NCBI GenBank assembly: GCA_934102335.1
Contig: CAKOSP010000001.1
Coordinates: 268,511-332,510, forward strand
Direction of reading: 5' to 3'
Origin: an uncultured Bacilli bacterium
GTDB taxonomy: Bacteria; Bacillota_I; Bacilli_A; RF39; UBA660
Length of the DNA stretch: 64,000 nucleotides
In this document: positions 8,220-28,867 of the stretch, piece after piece
Position numbering within the stretch: the stretch's first letter is position 1
Layout: every line of letters starts with the position of its first letter
Translations under genes and position numbers: made by a program
Notes under the pieces: generated by a model
The model's database searches: none
The model's input: the letters and a program-made list of their open reading frames with translations, nothing else
What the model was told of the DNA's origin: nothing

Positions 8220-9077
8220 ATGAAAAAAAATTGGAAGAACTTATTAATAAACTTATTTTTAATATTTTTTTTAGTTTTAGCTTTTAAAAATAAAGAATTA
8301 ATAGCATATTACGCAATTGAAGGAATAAATTTATATTTACTAAAGGTTTTTCCTTTTTTATTTATCATGATTATATTAGAAAATCTATTAATAAATTATG
8401 GAATTCTAAATTATATTAAAAAACCTAAAATTGTTATAATTTTATTATTTCTATTGGGAGGATCTCCAACCAGTGCTATATTATTAAATGATTTAGTAAA
8501 AAATAATTCTATAGATGACAAAACTGCTAATAAAATGCTAAAATATTCATATTTTTCTAACCCATTATTTTGTTATTATATGCTATACAACATATTTTTA
8601 AATAAAAATCTAGTTATAAAAATAATATTGTCACACTACTTAAGTAATATATTTATAAGTTTAATACATAAAGATAAAATATATTACTCAAAAAATAAAA
8701 ATACAAATAACCTTGGTACAAATATCATAAGTAGTATTAAAAAAAGTGTAGACACTAATTTAATGATTCTAGGTACAATTGTTTTTTTTATGATTTTAAA
8801 TGGAATATTGAATAATGGAAACTCCAATATCAATTTTTTTATAAGTGGAATTATAGAAATAACTCAAGGGTTAAATAAATTAAGCCTTTTGCAAAACAAC
8901 ATTATAAAAATTATTTATGCTATAATTTTCATTAGTTTTGGAGGTTTATCAATACATCTGCAAATATATACTTGCCTAGATTCTAACTCCAATTTAAAAT
9001 ATTCTTCCTTTTTTAAAGGAAGAATATTATGTACTTTAATAAGCATTATTATTTTTATAATATTAACAATTATATGA
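8220..9077 (+). CDS. YlbJ-like sporulation integral membrane protein (nucleoside-recognition/gate-type)
   Basis: 285 aa polytopic protein. N-terminal EGINLYLLKVFPFLF resembles the YlbJ family. Divergent neighbour of the ylbL-like gene, as in B. subtilis. Confidence 0.4.
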   Translation: MKKNWKNLLINLFLIFFLVLAFKNKELIAYYAIEGINLYLLKVFPFLFIMIILENLLINYGILNYIKKPKIVIILLFLLGGSPTSAILLNDLVKNNSIDDKTANKMLKYSYFSNPLFCYYMLYNIFLNKNLVIKIILSHYLSNIFISLIHKDKIYYSKNKNTNNLGTNIISSIKKSVDTNLMILGTIVFFMILNGILNNGNSNINFFISGIIEITQGLNKLSLLQNNIIKIIYAIIFISFGGLSIHLQIYTCLDSNSNLKYSSFFKGRILCTLISIIIFIILTII

Positions 9078-9578
9078 ATAATTAAAATCTATAGGAACAG
9101 TTAAAGAAATATCATCCAAAGGATTATTACCTTCTTCATTTTTTATAATGATATTAATATTTAATATTCCACTTTTTTCATCAATTTTATTTTGACACAT
9201 ATAAGAATTATTAAAATCTATTTTAGCCCCCTTTAATCTCCATTTTGTTTTAACACTATCATGTGATATGTATTCAACAAGATAACCTTCGTTTTCCTGA
9301 TAATATTTAATTTTACCTTTATTGTTATCCGAAAAAAATAAAGTTATATCATTATCTTTTTTTTCAACATCTGCCAATTTATTAGCTATCAAATCATCCT
9401 CAATTGTTTTAATAATTTCTAATCTTATGTTCTGATTTTTAACCGCATAATTTGATTCTGAAGAAAGATTATTAATCTGTGATATTAAACCATACATTAG
9501 CAAAACAACAACAGACATCAAAGAAAGACAGACAAGCATTTCAATTAAACTCATCCCTTTGTTATTTAACGTTTTCAT
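9063..9578 (-). CDS. type IV pilin-like / competence pseudopilin
   Basis: N-terminus NKG|MSLIEMLVCL is a class III (prepilin) signal with Glu at +5. Third gene of an overlapping three-gene operon. Confidence 0.6.
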   Translation of the reverse strand: MKTLNNKGMSLIEMLVCLSLMSVVVLLMYGLISQINNLSSESNYAVKNQNIRLEIIKTIEDDLIANKLADVEKKDNDITLFFSDNNKGKIKYYQENEGYLVEYISHDSVKTKWRLKGAKIDFNNSYMCQNKIDEKSGILNINIIIKNEEGNNPLDDISLTVPIDFNYSYNC

Positions 9579-10053
9579 CTTGGCCCTCCATAACTAAATA
9601 CGGATCCTGCCTCGTACCATTATTTATTAAATCCACATTGTCTTTTAATTTCATAACTATTTTTATACCTTCATCTTCTTTTATATAGCCAGCCAAAGAT
9701 AAATTATTATCATTATAATAATCCTGTTCAAAAATATCTTGATTCTTTATATTATTTATAATCCAATCAGAAACATATTTTTTATAATCAACATCATCAG
9801 TCATCAAAATAGTTTCTGCACTTGTAATTACTTTTTTACCATCAACTATATTTAATTCAAACAAATAGTTATTAATTTTAAGATACTTTTTTTCTTGAAT
9901 GTTAAATTTAAAACTATTTTTTATATCTTCTTTTTGTTTATTTAAAAGTTTTCTATTAGTGCTATATGTTGTAAGAAGCATTAACATTAAAGTTATAAAC
10001 AATACAAATAAAGCAAGCACTATACCAGTAGAAATAAATCCTTTTTTATTCAT
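9562..10053 (-). CDS. pseudopilin-like membrane-anchored protein (no Glu+5)
   Basis: MNKKG|FISTGIVLALFVLF hydrophobic N-terminus. Overlaps both flanking pseudopilin genes. Confidence 0.45.
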   Translation of the reverse strand: MNKKGFISTGIVLALFVLFITLMLMLLTTYSTNRKLLNKQKEDIKNSFKFNIQEKKYLKINNYLFELNIVDGKKVITSAETILMTDDVDYKKYVSDWIINNIKNQDIFEQDYYNDNNLSLAGYIKEDEGIKIVMKLKDNVDLINNGTRQDPYLVMEGQDENVK

Positions 10054-10600
10054 ATTTTACCCCCGAATCTAACCACACAAAATATTTATTACAAATATCA
10101 GTATCTTTGCAATTAGTCTCATTATATTTAAAAATAAATACATAATTATCAGTTTTTATACTACCTAAAGTTTTAAAATATTCTAAGCTTTCCTCATCGA
10201 ATGTTTGATATGAATACTTACATAATTCACACGTTGTTGTAGCACACTCTCCTTTTAAATAATCACTTTTGCATTCTAGTAAAGTTTGAATACTAGGTTT
10301 AATAATATATATTTTAGCTATATCATAAGCGGATTTATAGGTCGACATTTTTTCTTGATCTAAAGTATATTCCAAAACTAAAGAATTATTTTTGAAATTC
10401 AAATTTTTAAAATCTTCAACATTTAATAATTCTTTTAAAGTAAAGTATGATTTATAAATATAAGCTGGATCATCATAATACAATCTATTTTTTTCAGTAT
10501 TAAAAATATTTTTATATGAAAAATAAATTAATAATAAAGAAGAAGTTAAAACTAAAATCATTATTATTGTTTCAATAAATGCATAACCTTTATTATTCAT
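10046..10600 (-). CDS. type IV pilin-like / competence pseudopilin, Cys-rich
   Basis: MNNKG|YAFIETIIMILVL prepilin signal with Glu+5 and 8 Cys in the globular part. AGAGGGA SD. Confidence 0.6.
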   Translation of the reverse strand: MNNKGYAFIETIIMILVLTSSLLLIYFSYKNIFNTEKNRLYYDDPAYIYKSYFTLKELLNVEDFKNLNFKNNSLVLEYTLDQEKMSTYKSAYDIAKIYIIKPSIQTLLECKSDYLKGECATTTCELCKYSYQTFDEESLEYFKTLGSIKTDNYVFIFKYNETNCKDTDICNKYFVWLDSGVKYE

Positions 10601-10679
10601 ACTATCCCTCTATTATTAAGTATAATGTAATTAATAAGTTTTTACAAGCATAAAAAAACTTTATGATATACATAAAGTT

Positions 10680-10865
10680 TTAATTATCTATGGTTTTCCA
10701 TTCAGTATTGCCACATTTAGTACAAATTTTTGGTGCTAATATTTTTTTACCTTTAGGAAGCTCTATACCTGTGTCTATCTTACTACACAAAAGTCCAGTT
10801 TCCTCATCAATATAAGCAATTCCAAATTTGGCATCTTCACAGCAATTACATTCTTTATCTTTCAT
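10680..10865 (-). CDS. small Cys-rich zinc-ribbon-like protein
   Basis: 61 aa with CNCC...C...CTKC. Followed by the hairpin AACTTTATG/CATAAAGTT plus a T-run. Confidence 0.4.
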   Translation of the reverse strand: MKDKECNCCEDAKFGIAYIDEETGLLCSKIDTGIELPKGKKILAPKICTKCGNTEWKTIDN

Positions 10866-10948
10866 ATTCTTCCTCCAATAATATTATCGACGTTTTCAAA
10901 AAATCTATACAAAAAACATCAAATTACATATATTATTATAGGTGATAT

Positions 10949-11125
10949 TATGAAGCCTTGTAGAAACAATGGCTTTGCTGTTGTAATGATTTTTTTACTT
11001 TCTATATTAATATTTTATCAAGTAATCTTAACATTTATCTTTCCTTTTAGATGGAATATTTTTGTTTTAATTATTGAATTATTTTTTCTATTCTTCTTTA
11101 TTGCTAGAATAATATGGCCTTATTA
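10949..11125 (+). CDS. candidate 58-aa two-TM small membrane protein (below the ORF-track cutoff)
   Basis: AGGTGA SD 4-6 nt before the ATG. Product is MKPCRNNGFAVVMIFLLSILIFYQVILTFIFPFRWNIFVLIIELFFLFFFIARIIWPY. The 3' end overlaps the convergent ysxE-like gene. Confidence 0.3.
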
Positions 11126-11981
11126 ATTCTTCAGTTTTAAAAACATAATCCAATTTAGTTCTTATATCTCTAGTATTTTTAAGTTCTTCTAACATATCAA
11201 ATTCTATCTTTGGAGGAATAGATATTAAAACAAAAAATAATTTCTTTTCCATTGCACTTAAGGGATAGTTACTCAAATATTTATCAAATACTTTCTTAAA
11301 ATTAACATCTAAATAATTATTCTGATAAAATTTAACTAAATCAATTACAGGAGTCTCAATTTTTGACTTATCCCAACTTATTAGATAATCAGGATCATTT
11401 TTAATAAAATGATCAAGCGATAAATTGTTATGCACTACCGCAACCCTCTGAGTATTTTCTTGTTTAGCCAGTTCATACCAACTATCTAGCTGTTGTTTAC
11501 AAAAATCTAACATTAAATCCAATTTATAATAATTGACTAAAAATAAATAATGTGATGGGCTATGATACACTTCCTTAAAAAAAATATCATATTTTTGACT
11601 ATAGTATTCTTTATAATAATTAACATTAGAAAGAACATCCTCATATATTTCTTTAAACTTATCTTGACTTATTTCTTTAAAATATGTAGTTTTATTATGC
11701 AAATTACTGACTAAATTTATCATGTCTAAACTTCTTTGTTCTTTGGGCATTACAATATCAGGAACATATTTATATACCGTCACATCTTTTCTAGTATCAT
11801 CGATTATCTTAGGAAAATTAGAAAATCCTCTACTTTGTAAATAAGAAAATAATTCTTTTGTTTTATTATTTGTTTGTTTTATAACATAATCTCCACTAGA
11901 AGTATTAATAATGGTAGATTTGCCTATTTTAGTATACTTATATGGTTTATATATGTTTTTTAAAACGTCTAAACTATTCAT
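11088..11981 (-). CDS. ysxE: YsxE/CotS-family spore coat kinase-like protein
   Basis: 297 aa with a kinase-like HNNLSLDHF motif. Lies immediately downstream of, and overlapping, the spoVID-like gene, as in the B. subtilis spoVID-ysxE operon. Confidence 0.6.
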   Translation of the reverse strand: MNSLDVLKNIYKPYKYTKIGKSTIINTSSGDYVIKQTNNKTKELFSYLQSRGFSNFPKIIDDTRKDVTVYKYVPDIVMPKEQRSLDMINLVSNLHNKTTYFKEISQDKFKEIYEDVLSNVNYYKEYYSQKYDIFFKEVYHSPSHYLFLVNYYKLDLMLDFCKQQLDSWYELAKQENTQRVAVVHNNLSLDHFIKNDPDYLISWDKSKIETPVIDLVKFYQNNYLDVNFKKVFDKYLSNYPLSAMEKKLFFVLISIPPKIEFDMLEELKNTRDIRTKLDYVFKTEELIRPYYSSNKEE

Positions 11982-23633: not shown

Positions 23634-23887
23634 TATTTACCTCTATATCCATTTATAATTGCCATAAGTATTTCACTTCTGTCAAATTTTTTTATTTTTT
23701 TCCTTGCATTTTCATAACTTGTAATATAAGTTGGATCATTAGTCATTAAAAATCCAATTAATTGATTAGTAGAGTCATAACCCGCATCATCTAAAGAATT
23801 CATTATTTCATTTAAAGTAAGTAAAATTAATTCTTGACGAATATTTTTAACACTAAATACTGAAGTTTTACTATCCATAACCTGCAC
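23633..23887 (-). CDS. ireB: IreB/YrzL (UPF0297) family protein
   Basis: 84 aa with the motifs GYDSTNQLIGFLMTNDPTYITS and ARKKIKKFDRSEIL. Confidence 0.8.
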   Translation of the reverse strand: MQVMDSKTSVFSVKNIRQELILLTLNEIMNSLDDAGYDSTNQLIGFLMTNDPTYITSYENARKKIKKFDRSEILMAIINGYRGK

Positions 23888-23944
23888 CTCAAGTCACAAT
23901 AATTTTATCATTTATTAATAACATTGGCAAGACTACATTAAAAA

Positions 23945-24020
23945 ACGGCAGAGCTCATATGACTGAATTAACACATAATTCTTATATTAAAAAATAAATC
24001 ATATGAGGCTTATATGCCGT
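23945..24020 (-). terminator. long-stem imperfect inverted repeat followed by a U-run (probable terminator of the DUF3800 cassette)
   Basis: The arms ACGGCAGAGCTCATATGA and TCATATGAGGCTTATATGCCGT pair as 9+6 bp around a 36-nt AT loop. On the minus strand they are followed by TTTTT. Confidence 0.4.
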
Positions 24021-24082
24021 CAAAAAATATTATAATTATTTTTATAAATAAAGCAATCTATTATGAAAGACAATTTTTTACA

Positions 24083-24760
24083 TTATTTGCCAAATGTTTT
24101 AGAAGGAAATTTACTCTCAAAAATTATAAATGGTTTAATTATATTATAAAATTCATCAGTTGTATTATTATATTTTTTAAAAAGAGAATTAGAAATAATA
24201 TCTACCCACTGTATTAAATAACACGATTCTGATTCCAAATAATTAACTTGAAAATTAATCTTATATTTAAGTTCCCCTGTATCAATCCTTTCCAAAACCA
24301 GCCTATTATATAAATATGGTTTTAAAGATAATCTGTTGCCAATCTTAACATCCCTATTATCTAAATATAAATTAATGTATTTTACCTCTGGATAATCTTT
24401 AATAACATTTTTGATTATCAACTGAACCAAATAGTTATAACAAGCATTTTTATCATCGGAAGTTGATATTAAAAATGTAGTTTTTTTAATATCTAAAACA
24501 ATATATCTTACTTTAACATTTTTGGCTAAAATAGCATTAAGTAAATCAATTCTTGACCCTCTTTTTAAACTATTTCCTTTAACTTCTTTACCCTTTTTTA
24601 TATTTTCTTTAATTTTATATCTATTTATTACTCGACCAGCTCTTCTATTCATTGGTTTTAAAACATCTTGTTCAATTTCAATTGCGGATATTAAAAAGTA
24701 TCTTGATCCTTTAAGACCTAAGTCCCCAGACTCATCAAAAAAAAGATTAATTTTATTCAT
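24083..24760 (-). CDS. DUF3800-family protein
   Basis: 225 aa. The N-terminal LFFDESGDLG and C-terminal SCYLIQWVDIISNSLF match the DUF3800 hallmark motifs as I recall them. Function of the family is unknown. Confidence 0.6.
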   Translation of the reverse strand: MNKINLFFDESGDLGLKGSRYFLISAIEIEQDVLKPMNRRAGRVINRYKIKENIKKGKEVKGNSLKRGSRIDLLNAILAKNVKVRYIVLDIKKTTFLISTSDDKNACYNYLVQLIIKNVIKDYPEVKYINLYLDNRDVKIGNRLSLKPYLYNRLVLERIDTGELKYKINFQVNYLESESCYLIQWVDIISNSLFKKYNNTTDEFYNIIKPFIIFESKFPSKTFGK

Positions 24761-24815
24761 CTAAATCCCCCAGCTAAATAATATAAGGGGTATAAATAAA
24801 AAATAATGTCGTATA

Positions 24816-25199
24816 TTAGTTAAATGCTAACTCTACTGCCAATTTCTCGTCTTCTATGGCAATAAATAAAAATATTGCTCCACTTATCGCAATTAATAAA
24901 GATCCCATAAATGAAAGGATAGTTAATTTTTTCTTTTTAGGGCTATCGCTTTCTTTTAATTTTTTCAAATCATTAAATGAATCTTTTAAGAAATAAATAT
25001 ATACTATTAAGAGTATAAAAAAGATAGTCACCAAAACTTGTCTATACTTAGTTTTATCTTCAGCATTTTGAAATATAAAATACTTTCTTTCTAAATTATT
25101 AGAATAATAACTTAAAAATATTATAAAAAGATAAATAACCCATATAAAATCCTCAGTATTTATCTGTCTCAATTTTTCTTCCAAATTAAAACTATCCAT
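24816..25199 (-). CDS. small 3-TM membrane protein, no recognisable family
   Basis: 127 aa with three hydrophobic helices and a Lys-rich loop (SDSPKKKK). Lies 21 nt downstream of the transglutaminase-like gene. Confidence 0.5.
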   Translation of the reverse strand: MDSFNLEEKLRQINTEDFIWVIYLFIIFLSYYSNNLERKYFIFQNAEDKTKYRQVLVTIFFILLIVYIYFLKDSFNDLKKLKESDSPKKKKLTILSFMGSLLIAISGAIFLFIAIEDEKLAVELAFN

Positions 25200-25220
25200 A
25201 ATTATATATATGAATAGTTT

Positions 25221-26306
25221 CTATTTTTTTAACTTTCTTATCAGTGAAGTAATATGTTCATAATTTTCACTATTTTTTAAATAAAATTGTTCAAAGATGT
25301 CTTGGTTTTTATCACATACATCTTTAGCAGTGGATATTAGTGTTTTAAGTTCTCGTGCATCAATGCTATCAGGTATATTTTTAAAAGCTCTTTTAAAATC
25401 TTTAGAATTTTCATAATTAAAATCAGTTCTTTTTATTCTAATTTCATAACCCCTATCATCAACTAACCTTTTTTTATCAGAAGTTACACTATATGTACTT
25501 GTGTTTGTTGGATCTAAAAAATAACTTTGATTATTATAAATAACATAATTTAAAACATGATTACCATGAAAATAATCAAATATACTATGTCCTCTCTTAT
25601 ATTTATAATTATAATTTATGTTATAATCTTCTAAACCCATAATTTTCAAAGTACTTTCTAAAATCTTTAAAGCTTCAGGATCTATGGTATGATTAAAAAC
25701 ATTAATTAATAAATGTTCCATACTTCCTAATTGGATATTTTCATCTGGCATACTAATATTGCATTGAACTTCAGCTTCTCTACAATAAGTAGAAAATATG
25801 TAAGCATCATATTGCAATTGTCTTAATACCTTATCCAAAAATGGGGTAATATGCCTACAAACGCCAACGCCAGAACTGATATTTGCACTTAAAATCTTTG
25901 AATCATCAATAATATTATTTTTTGAATAATTAAAATTTTTATCATAAGATAAATACCCATTATATAATGCATAAGTATATGACGCGTAAACTTGGGCAGG
26001 ATCCTTAAAGTCAAATTCTTTAATTAATAAAGCAAAATTTTTTATAATATCATCCTGAATGTTTTTTATTTCTGTTATTTCTTTAGAATAAGATTCTAAA
26101 GAAAATATTTTTTGTAAGCAAAATAATATCACAGATATATTACCAATAGCAGTAATTGGCAAAGTCATCAATTGTAGTTGAGTATTAGCCTCTAATATAT
26201 TAGTAGCTATACTTAACCCATATATACAAATTTCAACAAAATTAATTTTTTTAAAAGTATTATAATTTATGGAATTACATATTTCTTCCAATTTTTTATT
26301 TTTCAT
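25221..26306 (-). CDS. membrane-anchored transglutaminase-like (papain-fold) cysteine protease candidate
   Basis: 361 aa with two N-terminal hydrophobic segments. GVGVC(150)RH, GNH(250)VLNYV and FLD(265)PTN match the Cys/His/Asp motif order of the transglutaminase-like superfamily. Confidence 0.5.
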   Translation of the reverse strand: MKNKKLEEICNSINYNTFKKINFVEICIYGLSIATNILEANTQLQLMTLPITAIGNISVILFCLQKIFSLESYSKEITEIKNIQDDIIKNFALLIKEFDFKDPAQVYASYTYALYNGYLSYDKNFNYSKNNIIDDSKILSANISSGVGVCRHITPFLDKVLRQLQYDAYIFSTYCREAEVQCNISMPDENIQLGSMEHLLINVFNHTIDPEALKILESTLKIMGLEDYNINYNYKYKRGHSIFDYFHGNHVLNYVIYNNQSYFLDPTNTSTYSVTSDKKRLVDDRGYEIRIKRTDFNYENSKDFKRAFKNIPDSIDARELKTLISTAKDVCDKNQDIFEQFYLKNSENYEHITSLIRKLKK

Positions 26307-26326
26307 AACAGCCCCACATCAGGGCT

Positions 26327-26355
26327 ATACTAACATATGTTTTAGTAAAGTTCAA
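26327..26355 (-). promoter_or_regulatory. sigma-A-type promoter of the three-gene cassette
   Basis: Minus strand reads TTGAAC-17 nt-TAGTAT with a TG at the extended -10 position, about 20 nt upstream of the ATG at 26306. Confidence 0.5.
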
Positions 26356-26389: not shown

Positions 26390-26404
26390 GAAAAGTTCGA
26401 GTAT
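26390..26404 (+). repeat. direct repeat copy 1 (GAAAAGTTCGAGTAT)
   Basis: Exact 15-mer repeated at 26684-26698. Confidence 0.8.
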
Positions 26405-26634
26405 CAATTAAATTTAGTACTCTTTTGGTGAAAGTATAACAATCACTAAGATTAAAACCTTAAACAATAAAATTATTCAAATTTATGATATAATAAATAT
26501 TACATAACATATATATAAGGTGGTATAAAAATATGGCTAAAAAGAAAATCTGATTTTAATTTTATTACCATTATTAATAATTGTAAAGATTATGCTAACT
26601 ATTGGGCAATATACAATATTTCAAGATAAGAAAA

Positions 26635-26675
26635 AATAAAAAACTACTCTCAATTTTGTTTGAGAGTAGTTTTTT
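26635..26675. terminator. bidirectional rho-independent terminator
   Basis: 11-bp stem ACTACTCTCAA/TTGAGAGTAGT flanked by an A-run and a T-run. Lies downstream of the tRNA pair (minus strand) and of a plus-strand mini transcription unit. Confidence 0.75.
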
Positions 26676-26683
26676 ATTACCTC

Positions 26684-26698
26684 GAAAAGTTCGAGTAT
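26684..26698 (+). repeat. direct repeat copy 2 (GAAAAGTTCGAGTAT), 10 nt from the tRNA-Leu 3' end
   Basis: Exact copy of 26390-26404. Here it is embedded in the small hairpin CTCGAA-AAG-TTCGAG. Confidence 0.8.
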
Positions 26699-26708
26699 TT
26701 ATCAAATC

Positions 26709-26793
26709 TGGTGCAGGTAAAGGGACTTGAACCCCCACGGACTGCTCCACTAGATCCTAAGTCTAGCGCGTCTACCAATTTCGCCATACCTGC
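26709..26793 (-). tRNA. tRNA-Leu (anticodon TAG)
   Basis: Reverse complement GCAGGTATGGCGAAATTGGTAGACGC...CTTAGGA...long variable arm...GGTTCAAGTCCC..ACCTGCACCA. Cloverleaf traced by hand; CCA is encoded. Confidence 0.9.
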
Positions 26794-26796
26794 ATA

Positions 26797-26873
26797 TGGT
26801 GGACCTTGTAGGACTCGAACCTACGACCGCCCGGTTATGAGCCGGATGCTCTAACCAACTGAGCTAAAGGTCC
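26797..26873 (-). tRNA. elongator-type tRNA with CAT anticodon (likely tRNA-Ile2/lysidine, otherwise tRNA-Met)
   Basis: GGACCTTTAGCTCAGTTGGTTAGAGCATCCGGCTCATAACCGG...GGTTCGAGTCCTACAAGGTCCACCA. G1-C72 are paired, so it is not an initiator. The body resembles tRNA-Ile. Confidence 0.85.
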
Positions 26874-26948: not shown

Positions 26949-27365
26949 TTATTGTTTATCTTGTAACATATTAAGTAAGTCAATTTTAAACATATCTTTT
27001 TGAGCATTAGCTTTACTAATCATAATACCTTTATATGTAGTTAATTCAGAACGATGGCCTTCAAGTAAAATATCTTCTGGTGTAATAGTTTCAAGCATTA
27101 CTACACCTTCCTTTTTATGTACTGAATAAATTAATTTTACCTCACCATGAATTTGAGCAAACATTTTATCACTAGGTAATTTTAACTCATAAGTATCAAC
27201 ATCAGTACCAGATTTTTTTAACTCTCCAACAAACTTTCCATTTCTTAAATCAGAATAATATTCAAAATTTAATTTTTTAAAAGCAAGCATATTATATTTT
27301 TTTAATGCTCTTTCTAACTTTCTATATTCGTTCTCATCAATATAGTCTAAAACATAACCTTTCAT
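26949..27365 (-). CDS. hypothetical protein with weak RelE/ParE-toxin-like pattern
   Basis: 138 aa. TYELKLPSDKMF..VKLIYSVHKKEGVVMLETI..EGHRSELTTY resembles the yRl-RiiY-...-H/R-Y layout of RelE/ParE toxins. No partner ORF is present. Confidence 0.3.
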   Translation of the reverse strand: MKGYVLDYIDENEYRKLERALKKYNMLAFKKLNFEYYSDLRNGKFVGELKKSGTDVDTYELKLPSDKMFAQIHGEVKLIYSVHKKEGVVMLETITPEDILLEGHRSELTTYKGIMISKANAQKDMFKIDLLNMLQDKQ

Positions 27366-27497: not shown

Positions 27498-27755
27498 TTA
27501 GTGTTTTAAATAAACTATTGTTTCCCCTAAATTCCAATTATTAAGAGTAAATTGATCTACATTTTTATTTTCTTTTAATACTCTATGTACTTCTTTTGTT
27601 AAAATGTTTGTACTTTTCCCATGAATAACCCTAACCACAGGCTCTTTCATTTTTACTGCATCACTAATAAACTGATTAACTAAAGCCTCAACCATACTTA
27701 CTATTTCACCATGTAAATCCAATTGCAAAGTCTTACTAGTTACTATTGCCTTCAT
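27498..27755 (-). CDS. stand-alone Smr (small MutS-related) domain protein
   Basis: 85 aa with the LDLHGE and VIHGKSTNILTKEV motifs of Smr domains. The start overlaps the upstream stop (ATGA). Confidence 0.7.
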   Translation of the reverse strand: MKAIVTSKTLQLDLHGEIVSMVEALVNQFISDAVKMKEPVVRVIHGKSTNILTKEVHRVLKENKNVDQFTLNNWNLGETIVYLKH

Positions 27756-28867
27756 TGACTATTATTTGCTGGAGGATTTATACCAGGATTATTTAAATTA
27801 TTTCCCATAACTGGCTGTACAGGCTTTTGAACAACTGTAGCTTGGTTATTTTGTTGAACATTTATATTTTCAGAAGGAGTATTATTTACAACTGGCGGAG
27901 TTTGAACCGGTATCTGTTCAGGAGTTTGTTCAGTTTGAATATGCGGTGTAGCATGATTTTGATTGCCAAATTTTTTAGTATAATATGCTAAAACCTCATT
28001 TAATGCAGGAATTGAAGATTTAGATCCAAATTTTGAAACGCTTAAACCAGCAGCTATATTAGCAATTTGAATACACTTTTCAATGTCATATCCAACCGAC
28101 ACGCCATAAACAAAAGCTCCTCTAAATACATTACTAGAACCACTTTTATCAGAGGCTGCTATATCAATACCTTTTATCATATTAATTTTCTTATCTTTTG
28201 TATATAAAGCTCCACTAGCTCCTAAAGTTATGACTATATTACTCCTAGGATATTTATCTAAAAGTTTATTATATAAGTTAACTAATGATTGAGCATTATT
28301 TACATCTACTTGTAATTTAGTTACGGATGAAGCGAATTCCAAAGTAGCCAATATATATTTTCCGTACTTACATAATTCTTTAGTTTCTAAATCATCTTTT
28401 TTAGCAAAAACAAAGTTATCTTTATTTGGATATTTATTTATAGCGGTAAGAAAAGCATGATATTCATTACTATCTCCTAAAATATAATCAGGTTCTACTT
28501 GCCAACTTTCTTTTTTTATATAAGCACGCTCAGGCATTATATCAAATTTAGTATTATTACCATTCACTTTATCTACTAATATAAAAGCTGTTGGAGTAGG
28601 TTTATCAAAAGTCGTTTCTAAATATTCTAATCTTACACCACTTTGAGCAAGCTCTTTTCTAATTTTATTTCCATAGTCATCTCCACCAACAACAGATGCT
28701 ATATACGTTTCAAGACCCCAAGAAGCTAATAAAATAGAGCAATCATAGGCAAATCCTCCACCACTTTCAACCTTATCTTGTATTAAATATGTTTTACCTT
28801 CCTCAGGAAAAGAATCAACTTTACAAGTCATATTATAAGAAACCAAACCAAAACATAATGCTCTCAT
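27752..28867 (-). CDS. PfkB/ribokinase-family protein with degenerate catalytic motif and P/Q/N-rich C-terminal tail
   Basis: 371 aa. Ribokinase-like fold motifs include ESGGGFAYD. The expected DTxGAGD motif reads DKSGSSN. The last ~70 aa are low-complexity (QTPPVVNNTP...NPPANNSQ). Confidence 0.65.
   Translation of the reverse strand: MRALCFGLVSYNMTCKVDSFPEEGKTYLIQDKVESGGGFAYDCSILLASWGLETYIASVVGGDDYGNKIRKELAQSGVRLEYLETTFDKPTPTAFILVDKVNGNNTKFDIMPERAYIKKESWQVEPDYILGDSNEYHAFLTAINKYPNKDNFVFAKKDDLETKELCKYGKYILATLEFASSVTKLQVDVNNAQSLVNLYNKLLDKYPRSNIVITLGASGALYTKDKKINMIKGIDIAASDKSGSSNVFRGAFVYGVSVGYDIEKCIQIANIAAGLSVSKFGSKSSIPALNEVLAYYTKKFGNQNHATPHIQTEQTPEQIPVQTPPVVNNTPSENINVQQNNQATVVQKPVQPVMGNNLNNPGINPPANNSQ

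Follow-up and report, generated by a model that had tools for sequence, protein, structure and literature searches.

We analysed a 64,000-nt stretch of DNA from an uncultured Bacilli bacterium (hereafter the window), with emphasis on a gene for a DUF3800 protein, the structured small RNA (sRNA) that follows it and the two genes that precede it. The three genes, here called A, B and C, lie on the minus strand between a housekeeping block and a pair of tRNA genes. Transcription on that strand runs through X138, tRNA-Met, tRNA-Leu, a terminator, A, B, C, a 195-nt spacer and ireB, which starts at 23887 and is followed by ruvX, a DUF gene, yceG/mltG, a methyltransferase gene and U32 peptidase genes. 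An earlier note on this DNA had described three co-directional open reading frames (ORFs) separated by 21 and 55 nt, a housekeeping block that stops at 23887, an adjoining tRNA-Leu/tRNA(CAT) pair, the absence of a B. subtilis-type housekeeping gene among the three and the lack of an integrase. All of this holds: the ORFs are present as described, on the minus strand, ireB is the end of the block at that position, ARAGORN finds tRNA-Leu(tag) and tRNA-Met(cat), and no integrase ORF occurs between 23887 and 26709. The same note regarded the interval 24083-26355 as self-contained and took 23945-24020 for a long-stem terminator. Neither view survives our analysis, as the supposed terminator is a conserved structured sRNA gene, which that interval omits, and the three genes are not kept together as a unit. 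The main features are listed here.

23940-24021, minus strand: DUF3800-linked sRNA, about 82 nt in the window (of an approximately 85-nt class)
24029-24056, minus strand: putative sRNA promoter, TTGCTT (24056-24051), 16-nt spacer, TATAAT (24034-24029)
24083-24760, minus strand: gene C, 225 aa, DUF3800 family (ORF and Pfam)
24816-25199, minus strand: gene B, 127 aa, three transmembrane segments (ORF and hydropathy)
25221-26306, minus strand: gene A, 361 aa, N-terminal hydrophobic helix, Cys150-His250-Asp265 (ORF)
26327-26355, minus strand: putative A promoter, TTGAAC (26355-26350), 17-nt spacer, TGtTAGTAT (-10 at 26332-26327) with an extended -10 TG

The DUF3800 gene and its downstream RNA

Gene C encodes a DUF3800 protein, as had been proposed from its FFDESGD and IQWVDIIS sequences, both of which are present. 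The protein matches PF12686 with E=4.3e-10 and 40.9 bits against a cut-off of 21, over positions 2-148 of the 149 in the profile. Its homologues form more than 249 clusters, about 60% identical and nearly all 225 aa long, and the close ones were all pre-annotated as PF12686. The DE(S) (D9-E10-S11) and QxxD (Q184-W-V-D187) motifs described in PMC7736814 are both present; D9, E10, S11 and D187 are invariant across 25 C sequences, and the invariant acidic residues include D9 and E10 on strand 1, D90, D134, E176 and D187. The AlphaFold2 (AF2) model of C has a pLDDT of 86.6 and a pTM of 0.87. Foldseek searches with this model return RNase HII (1eke) as the best match (E=2.5e-6, TM score about 0.56), then human RNase H2A and RNase HIII, and the top 25 matches are all RNase HII, H2A and HIII. 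Comparison of the C family with PDB chains by sequence profile gave nothing meaningful. C is predicted from this modelled fold to be a small nuclease of the RNase H (RNase HII-like) type, and judging from the positions of its acidic residues these would fit an intact RNase H-type metal-binding site. Confidence in the model is low only for an invariant basic loop, VKIGNRLSLKPY (residues 138-149), which may be where the protein touches nucleic acid.

The protein is under strong purifying selection, with a dN of 0.022 and a dN/dS of 0.04 relative to the sister-lineage locus L003 (related loci are given by L numbers throughout). The alignment of C sequences has a mean column identity of 71%. C is as conserved as housekeeping genes or more so: at L019 the identity is 59% for C, compared with 54% for RuvX, 36% for IreB and 42% for YceG. 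The gene is single-copy, and syntenic within sub-clades. Several orthologues with ORFs of 130-208 aa looked truncated, an interpretation that we rejected since they proved intact on retranslation, with GTG or TTG starts; only the genes at L034, L038 and L067 are truly decayed. C also matches PHROG 9243 (E=1e-23), a remote phage family of unassigned function. This is the only link to phages, and a phage or viral origin was rejected, as tblastn finds no match for C in 50,697 phage genomes and the RNA pattern described below has none in viral contigs.

Alignment of the DNA downstream of C orthologues reveals an element of the form GGCAUAUAAGCCUUAUAUGAUUUAUUC...GAAUAUAAGAGUUAUG...UUAACUCAGUCAUAUAAGCACUGCC, followed by a U-tract. 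An nhmmer profile of this element finds exactly one copy, on the strand of the gene, in 30 of 31 close-orthologue loci, with the match in the window at 23939-24020. The RNA always lies downstream, 4-89 nt after the C stop codon and on the same strand (62 nt downstream in the window), L033 being the exception. A covariance model detects a single copy in the 64-kb window, at 87 bits, and further copies in L077, L078, L081 and L082. It detects none near distant DUF3800 genes, in L008, L079 or L080, or in the A and B family loci. The RNA adjoins C in 34 of 37 loci found through the protein, and a DUF3800 gene or remnant accompanies it in 9 of 9 loci found through the RNA: a scan of metagenomes with the RNA pattern gave nine loci, and the RNA immediately follows an intact DUF3800 gene at eight of them and a deleted remnant at the ninth, L067. 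The RNA is confined to one subfamily of 225-aa DUF3800 proteins in uncultured low-GC Bacilli. This comparative evidence shows gene C and the RNA to be a linked, co-conserved pair.

The proposed sRNA fold has a closing stem, P1 (24021-24015 with 23950-23944), a second stem inside it, P2, and two hairpins, P3 and P4, which form a three-way junction; the U-tract is at 23945-23940. We tested this structure on an alignment of 27 sequences. In 95.9% of cells the proposed partners can pair, compared with 30-40% in controls with slid partners; compensatory changes are found in 18 of 30 pairs, and none of 500 column shuffles reaches the observed values. An independent RNAalifold prediction contains P1, P2 and P4 as well as one more covarying pair, G19-C83. 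Of the four helices, P3 has the weakest support (90.5% paired, four of its seven pairs covarying). The copy in the window folds with a minimum free energy z-score of -4.99. Hardly any variation is seen in the junction strands UAUAAGC, UAUAAG and AG, and the sRNA contains three copies of the heptamer AUAUAAG. Mean column identity of the sRNA alignment is 80%, and the copies in the window and L003 are 100% identical, at a distance where the neighbouring genes have a dS of 0.2-0.6 and differ at 7-11% of nucleotides. The comparative evidence shows the sRNA to be structured and under purifying selection. Pairing of the AUAUAAG repeats with the leader of C, as an antisense interaction, was considered and rejected: the complement CTTATA occurs in only four of 31 leaders, at inconsistent positions, against a background of about 4% per 70-nt window.

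Promoters were assessed by positional conservation across species, because a generic promoter scan is uninformative in this AT-rich DNA (25% GC), where it performs at background (32 matches against 29.7 expected). Between the C stop codon and the RNA, a sequence of the form TTGAC(A/T/G)-17-(TG)TAnnAT is found in about 30 of 36 distinct sequences and ends 15-20 nt before the GGCAU core of the sRNA. From the conservation of this promoter we infer that the sRNA is transcribed independently of C. Rfam has no family for the sRNA at E<=1, or at E<=10 in a 196-nt search, in the window and seven orthologous loci; the library used, Rfam 15, holds 4,227 models, and its detections of DUF3800-X and DUF3800-V (below) serve as positive controls.

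The gene and the RNA can be separated by natural events. At L067 (5520-5738) a gene remnant is left, MKEINLY fused to ...IFESKFPSRYFGK and a stop codon. The DUF3800 gene at L034 (about 10000-10565) is frameshifted and carries a stop, and that at L038 (about 10000-10416) is internally deleted. In all three lineages the downstream sRNA and its promoter are intact, with RNA scores of 94-115 bits. At L033, the only locus where C and the sRNA are 1.2 kb apart, a YhcG/DUF1016 PDDEXK nuclease gene (10675-11715, minus strand; Pfam E about 1e-32) lies between them. Together with one lineage that has the gene and no adjacent RNA, described below, these loci amount to natural 'experiments': RNA without gene in three lineages, gene without adjacent RNA in one, and a gene inserted between the two at one locus. 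At three other loci, L009 (10731-10900), L010 (1626-1789) and L029 (2199-2503), the sRNA is followed by a tRNA gene, at a distance of no more than about 7 nt in L009 and L010. The U-tract is poor in these cases, which suggests possible co-transcription with the tRNA.

Genes A and B and the tRNA-adjacent slot

The region upstream of A contains the following additional features.

26390-26418 and 26684-26712, no strand: 29-nt direct repeat (repeat search, 83% identity)
26635-26678, minus strand: hairpin terminator of the tRNA pair (terminator scan)
26709-26793, minus strand: tRNA-Leu(tag) (ARAGORN, Rfam)
26797-26873, minus strand: tRNA-Met(cat) (ARAGORN, Rfam)
26949-27365, minus strand: X138, 138-aa protein

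The earlier note proposed that A, B and C are a single tRNA-flanked accessory cassette for defence, conflict or membrane stress. Some features of the locus agree with this proposal. The genes are co-directional and closely spaced, and a terminator scan finds no simple terminator between them. The promoter proposed for A, TTGAAC-17-TAGTAT with an upstream TG, is present and kept in L003, where homology with the window stops just upstream of its -35 element; it possibly also serves B and C. The arrangement A-B-C-ireB is kept in L007, from the same species (A 97% identical), and in the sister lineage L003/L004 (A 68% identical). The trio is confined to these relatives, which speaks against a three-gene module. 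Word indexing gives six A homologues; those of about 30% identity, at L001, L002, L005 and L006, have neither B nor C nearby. B orthologues at L073-L076 lie in unrelated contexts without A or C. C occurs without A or B, in unrelated contexts, in about 30 other species. In 27 species-representative metagenome-assembled genomes, labelled uncultured Bacilli, 'Tenericutes' or Erysipelotrichaceae, the C orthologue is never beside A, B or ireB, with a partial exception at L019, where the ireB block is about 6 kb from C. No neighbouring protein family is common to the close-orthologue C loci that we compared. The co-occurrence check that the earlier note suggested thus comes out negative: the three genes are never together in the roughly 30 other species with C, at the four distant A loci or at the four B loci.

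Closer relatives of the locus reveal what varies. L081 (C 70% identical) carries, in order, Y215, PfkB, Smr, X138, tRNA-Met, tRNA-Leu, two orphan genes for proteins of 51 and 316 aa, C, the RNA, HlyIII and ireB. In L077/L078 (C 82% identical) the order is YefM, YoeB, a B-like gene, C, the RNA and ireB, without A. L081 thus has the tRNA-Met/tRNA-Leu pair ahead of the slot as well. In L003 no such pair precedes A, so even the sister lineage does not conserve the position next to tRNA genes. Because L081 and L077/L078 keep C and carry other cargo, C is the constant anchor of the locus and the stretch from tRNA-Leu to C is a variable slot. Slot content differs among relatives, and A therefore behaves as accessory cargo. 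A and B are lineage-specific neighbours and not part of the DUF3800-RNA unit. The idea of a tRNA-flanked accessory insertion accordingly applies to A, and partly to B, as cargo in the slot, and fails for C. Presence and absence at the locus follow the same division, with A and partly B differing in L077 and L081 and C present in all. We also asked whether the 316-aa gene in the L081 slot could be a distant homologue of A, and dismissed the idea on an hhalign probability of 0.2%. The YefM (PhdYeFM)-YoeB pair, a type II toxin-antitoxin pair at L077 299-824 and L078 68-349, sits where A is in the window. In L081 the HlyIII-family membrane gene (8814-9452) is inserted between the DUF3800-sRNA unit and ireB, which shows that the junction downstream of the unit is also variable.

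Island-like signatures are sparse. The 15-bp direct repeat that had been taken as typical of islands exists as an exact 15-mer but does not bracket the genes. It lies within a 29-nt repeat of 83% identity that duplicates the 3' flank of tRNA-Leu and is absent in L003; both copies lie between tRNA-Leu and A, and the cassette is therefore not enclosed. A past integration may have left the repeat as an att-like scar; the two copies enclose about 265 bp of non-coding DNA and no gene. Base composition shows no anomaly (22-25% GC inside and 21-32% outside the locus). Relative to L003, A has a dN of 0.18 and a dN/dS of 0.29 and B a dN of 0.046 and a dN/dS of 0.10, values discordant with each other and with those of C. 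PADLOC-DB v2 reveals no complete known anti-phage system, and A, B and X138 have no meaningful match in it; C matches one candidate component, PDC-M04A, weakly (E=2.9e-8). A and B have no match in PADLOC, PHROG or NCBIfam. A variable slot next to tRNA genes and the candidate match of C are what a cassette could still claim. The restriction of the trio to one species and its sister lineage, the occurrence of each gene alone elsewhere, the absence of A from the same locus in L077 and L081, the discordant rates, the non-bracketing repeat, the flat GC content and the lack of database matches for A and B make a three-gene cassette highly improbable, and the proposal is already largely refuted by its own co-occurrence criterion. 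The locus therefore contains two annotation traps: an apparent long terminator that is a conserved RNA gene, and an apparent three-gene defence cassette that is a conserved anchor beside a tRNA-adjacent variable slot.

The 361-aa A protein was described as having two N-terminal hydrophobic segments and a Cys/His/Asp set of transglutaminase type. Hydropathy gives one strong segment, residues 44-66, in place of two. The catalytic-type set is conserved: across 56 diverse family members, conservation of C150, H250 and D265 reaches 90% or more, the seven closest members show no change at these positions, and the conserved residues across the 56 are G146, C150, R151, H152, N249, H250, D265 and T267. 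The family assignment fares less well, as A has no match to Transglut_core (PF01841) at E<=1, nor to any Pfam model; seven of the 56 relatives match Transglut_core below threshold, the best with E=0.0031. At E<=1e-3 the family comprises 1,345 representatives at 50% identity, diverges fast and has no Pfam model of its own. A family of more than 1,300 such representatives of fast-evolving Cys-His-Asp proteins is thus without a model in Pfam. The AF2 model of A has a pLDDT of 91. Its best Foldseek match in the PDB is TglA (9crn; E=0.086, probability 0.97) and that in BFVD is a NAT-like protein (E=0.079), neither of them significant. The match lists are dominated by enzymes of the transglutaminase fold and related Cys-His-Asp enzymes; further weak structural matches are Rad4/PNGase, 3isr (a Cytophaga cysteine protease), TGase 3, factor XIIIa, TgpA, PeiP and arylamine N-acetyltransferases (NATs). 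Comparison of the A family with the PDB by sequence profile gave nothing meaningful, and the broad A alignment has no stretch conserved enough for locus-finding. Given the conserved residues and these weak matches, A probably works like a thiol enzyme of the transglutaminase fold. Like the transglutaminase and papain-fold proteins (TglA 9crn, TgpA 6g4h, PeiP 8z4f and NATs), it has Cys, His and Asp in the canonical order, in a GxCRH...NH...(Y/F)xLDPT pattern, and like TgpA-type proteins it has an N-terminal membrane anchor. Unlike them, A carries about 100 extra residues between Cys and His. A literature search on S. pyogenes TglA was unproductive.

One A homologue, 31% identical, lies at L001 (6805-11104) directly after a large serine recombinase (Resolvase and Recombinase domains) and a Mob_Pre relaxase, downstream of smpB, and looks like cargo of a small integrative mobilizable element. 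Other distant A homologues are near NlpC/P60 and LysM genes. One may speculate that A has an accessory, envelope-directed role. For B, the earlier description as a 127-aa protein with three transmembrane segments agrees with its hydropathy, which shows three hydrophobic segments. Its family has 685 clusters, 59-68% identical and almost all 127 aa long. The orthologues occur in envelope-flavoured contexts, beside an MraY-like glycosyltransferase gene or LysM genes, and a B-like gene adjoins C in L077. B is a conserved member of a three-transmembrane family and a neighbour of C only in the sub-lineage of the window.

Two further genes upstream of the tRNA pair may be mentioned. X138 has no family assigned and matches SduA_N weakly (E=0.04); it is 85-86% identical in lineages where the DUF3800 protein is 65-70% identical, and lies near the DUF3800 gene in several arrangements. 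A 371-aa protein (27752-28867, minus strand) ends, at its C terminus, in a long low-complexity stretch in which Q, N, P and V abound, and its L081 orthologue, 38% identical, is annotated as PfkB.

Possible modes of action of the pair

We favour, with slightly better than even confidence, a composite region in which the DUF3800 nuclease and the sRNA are the core, A and B stand outside it, and the RNA restrains the nuclease. The DUF3800 gene (24083-24760) would encode an RNase H-fold nuclease. The sRNA (about 24021-23940) would be transcribed independently. Comparative evidence shows it to fold into P1-P4 around strictly conserved junction nucleotides, with P1 and the U-tract as its own terminator and probably also as that of the DUF3800 mRNA. 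The sRNA would then bind the DUF3800 protein to form a ribonucleoprotein (RNP) in which the RNA controls the nuclease. Its most likely role would be that of a dedicated inhibitor or antitoxin-like partner, following the logic of type III toxin-antitoxin systems or retron effectors; less likely, the RNA could be a specificity or scaffold subunit. A restraining or licensing RNA is favoured because the DUF3800 family has repeatedly been recruited to conflict systems, because C has the weak PDC-M04A match and the match to phage PHROG 9243, and because an accessory DUF3800 gene of Legionella scored as essential alongside antitoxins (bioRxiv 10.1101/2020.10.01.323287). It is favoured also because the RNA has a strong promoter and was kept in three lineages where the nuclease was lost, and because different DUF3800 subfamilies use unrelated RNAs.

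Several observations weigh against this reading. Strict adjacency of C and the RNA is not universal, because one lineage keeps intact C genes with no RNA within up to 8 kb:

L008 3281-3958: intact C without adjacent RNA
L079 8001-8678: intact C without adjacent RNA
L080 4917-5594: intact C without adjacent RNA

In this lineage C is 65-67% identical, a convergent LexA gene abuts it and X138 is divergent upstream; the RNA may have been relocated or lost. The -35 element of the sRNA in the window itself, TTGCTT, is weak, with three of six matches. Other points count against an inhibitor or toxin-antitoxin mode in particular. A repeat search finds no tandem repeat at the sRNA, the RNA pattern gives 0 matches in viral contigs, and C has no match in the phage genomes searched. 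The pair appears to be vertically inherited, single-copy and strongly constrained, and in this looks more like a housekeeping component.

These same points make a housekeeping RNP a serious rival: no repeat array, an atypical order, apparently vertical inheritance under very strong constraint and no copies in the viral data. On such an account, C and the sRNA would serve core nucleic-acid processing in small-genome low-GC Bacilli, with no conflict role, in tasks such as RNA maturation or turnover or the removal of RNA-DNA hybrids, and the RNA would be a cofactor, guide or substrate mimic. The near-constant length of C, its conservation at or above the level of housekeeping genes between species, its low dN/dS, its synteny, the column identity and consensus promoter of the RNA and the lack of copies in viral contigs or phage genomes all fit. 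On the other side, the DUF3800 gene is dispensable, because it is decayed or deleted in L034, L038 and L067. DUF3800 proteins are elsewhere tied to retrons, CRISPR and variable regions (PMC7736814, PMC12669027, bioRxiv 10.1101/2020.10.01.323287), and the sRNA lacks a variable guide-like segment. Structurally unrelated RNAs in each DUF3800 subfamily (PMC5737381) would also be odd for a universal catalytic cofactor. We consider this account rather unlikely. More modestly, the conserved hairpin could be only a cis-acting element of the DUF3800 mRNA, either an intrinsic terminator or a 3'-UTR (untranslated region) stabiliser, that neither acts in trans nor binds protein. It invariably follows C closely on the same strand and finishes with a stem and U-tract, and it was indeed first taken for a terminator. 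Unlike a terminator, however, it has about 40 nucleotides, unpaired or in the junction, that stay conserved among species with proteins about 60% identical. Its two internal hairpins covary, a consensus promoter separates it from the C stop codon, and element and promoter outlast deletion of the gene (L067, L038) and the YhcG insertion (L033). A pure cis-terminator is very unlikely for these reasons.

A DUF3800 nuclease whose activity or specificity is set by its RNA would have wider consequences. If this is true, each of the many unrelated DUF3800 RNAs would serve its own protein as a regulatory or guide subunit, within a widespread family of RNP nucleases that would act in immunity or as addiction modules, and the compact pair would be a convenient experimental entry. 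The very small protein (225 aa), the compact RNA (about 85 nt), the defined promoter and terminator and the natural 'experiments' make binding, toxicity and nuclease assays straightforward to design.

Comparison with known systems

Type III toxin-antitoxin systems (ToxIN, CptIN, TenpIN) link a nuclease gene to a small structured RNA that neutralises the nuclease by direct binding. Their antitoxin RNA is a tandem repeat upstream of the toxin gene, with a terminator between the two. The C-sRNA pair resembles them in the tight linkage of a predicted nuclease gene to a structured RNA with a strong promoter, and the loss of the nuclease in lineages where the RNA persists agrees with an antitoxin that can safely outlive its toxin. 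It differs in that the sRNA has no tandem repeats and is a single unit, downstream, with its own promoter, an arrangement that also speaks against the inhibitor mode proposed above. The fold predicted for C is RNase H and not ToxN/Kid-like, and inheritance looks vertical.

The closest structural relatives of C are RNase HII and H2A (PDB 1eke, 3puf), with which it aligns over about 218 columns; in both, strand 1 carries a D-E pair and acidic residues follow some of the later strands. The sequence identity is 10-15%, with no sequence-level match in the PDB. C is further distinguished by the motifs DDKNACYNYL and VKIGNRLSLKPYLYN, and by its dedicated RNA partner.

DUF3800 proteins are RNase H-fold partners in type VII retrons, which consist of a reverse transcriptase (RT), a non-coding RNA (ncRNA) and a DUF3800 effector (Mestre et al. 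2020, PMC7736814). In class 2 CRISPR, TPR-DUF3800 accessory proteins belong to Cas12a2/V-A2 and VI-F loci (PMC10910872, PMC12669027). The RNase H fold noted for these proteins in the literature agrees with that predicted for C. With both, the pair shares a DUF3800 RNase H-fold domain next to a structured nucleic-acid component and a presumed defence role, and the N-terminal DE motif of the retron-linked proteins is also found in C. Unlike these systems, C has no RT, Cas gene, CRISPR array or TPR domain nearby in the window and related loci. Its QxxD motif is intact (Q184-D187), whereas the retron-linked proteins lack the Q (PMC7736814). An accessory DUF3800 gene of Legionella scored as essential in transposon sequencing (Tn-seq) and is listed beside antitoxins (bioRxiv 10.1101/2020.10.01.323287).

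The nearest precedent is the set of RNA motifs described by Weinberg et al. in 2017, eleven mutually dissimilar motifs, DUF3800-I to -XI, that lie beside DUF3800 genes (PMC5737381). Terminators accompany several of them, UAA recurs in their sequences, and the authors put forward no hypothesis on function (PMC5737381). A literature search for later work on the drum and skipping-rope RNAs was unproductive. Four of the motifs were confirmed in Rfam: RF02969 (I), RF02964 (V), RF02968 (IX) and RF02984 (X). Our searches also detected two of them at other loci, DUF3800-X at six loci directly downstream of distant, mostly archaeal DUF3800 genes and DUF3800-V in the same position beside a bacterial one, which illustrates how generally protein and RNA are linked.

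L041 4735-4804, opposite strand: DUF3800-X (Rfam)
L046 10640-10709, opposite strand: DUF3800-X (Rfam)
L049 1626-1695, opposite strand: DUF3800-X (Rfam)
L052 10623-10696, opposite strand: DUF3800-X (Rfam)
L053 4883-4956, opposite strand: DUF3800-X (Rfam)
L055 10661-10730, opposite strand: DUF3800-X (Rfam)
L054 10635-10728, opposite strand: DUF3800-V, beside a bacterial DUF3800 gene (Rfam)

Like these motifs, the sRNA is structured, has a length in the range of about 70-100 nt, adjoins a DUF3800 gene directly and belongs to a kind of RNA that is rich in UAA and often followed by a Rho-independent terminator. It differs in that it matches no Rfam model and its own covariance model misses the DUF3800-X and -V loci; moreover, the X and V copies lie on the opposite strand, whereas window-type sRNAs are always downstream on the same strand. 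The sRNA is set apart from I, V, IX and X, the motifs confirmed in the library compared, and is likely a twelfth structural class, though it may equal one of II-IV, VI-VIII or XI. It is possible, though we put it forward tentatively and as clearly the less probable outcome, that C and the sRNA form a minimal two-component RNA-dependent nuclease system in which the RNA, as a new twelfth class of partner, sets activity or specificity. As a covariation-supported RNA directly adjoining DUF3800 genes, the sRNA has the defining property of these motifs, and the C-sRNA pair is best read as one more member of the unexplained "DUF3800 RNA motif" kind of system. Why structured RNAs accompany DUF3800 genes has gone without explanation since 2017, and the locus adds a well-supported further example of this link.

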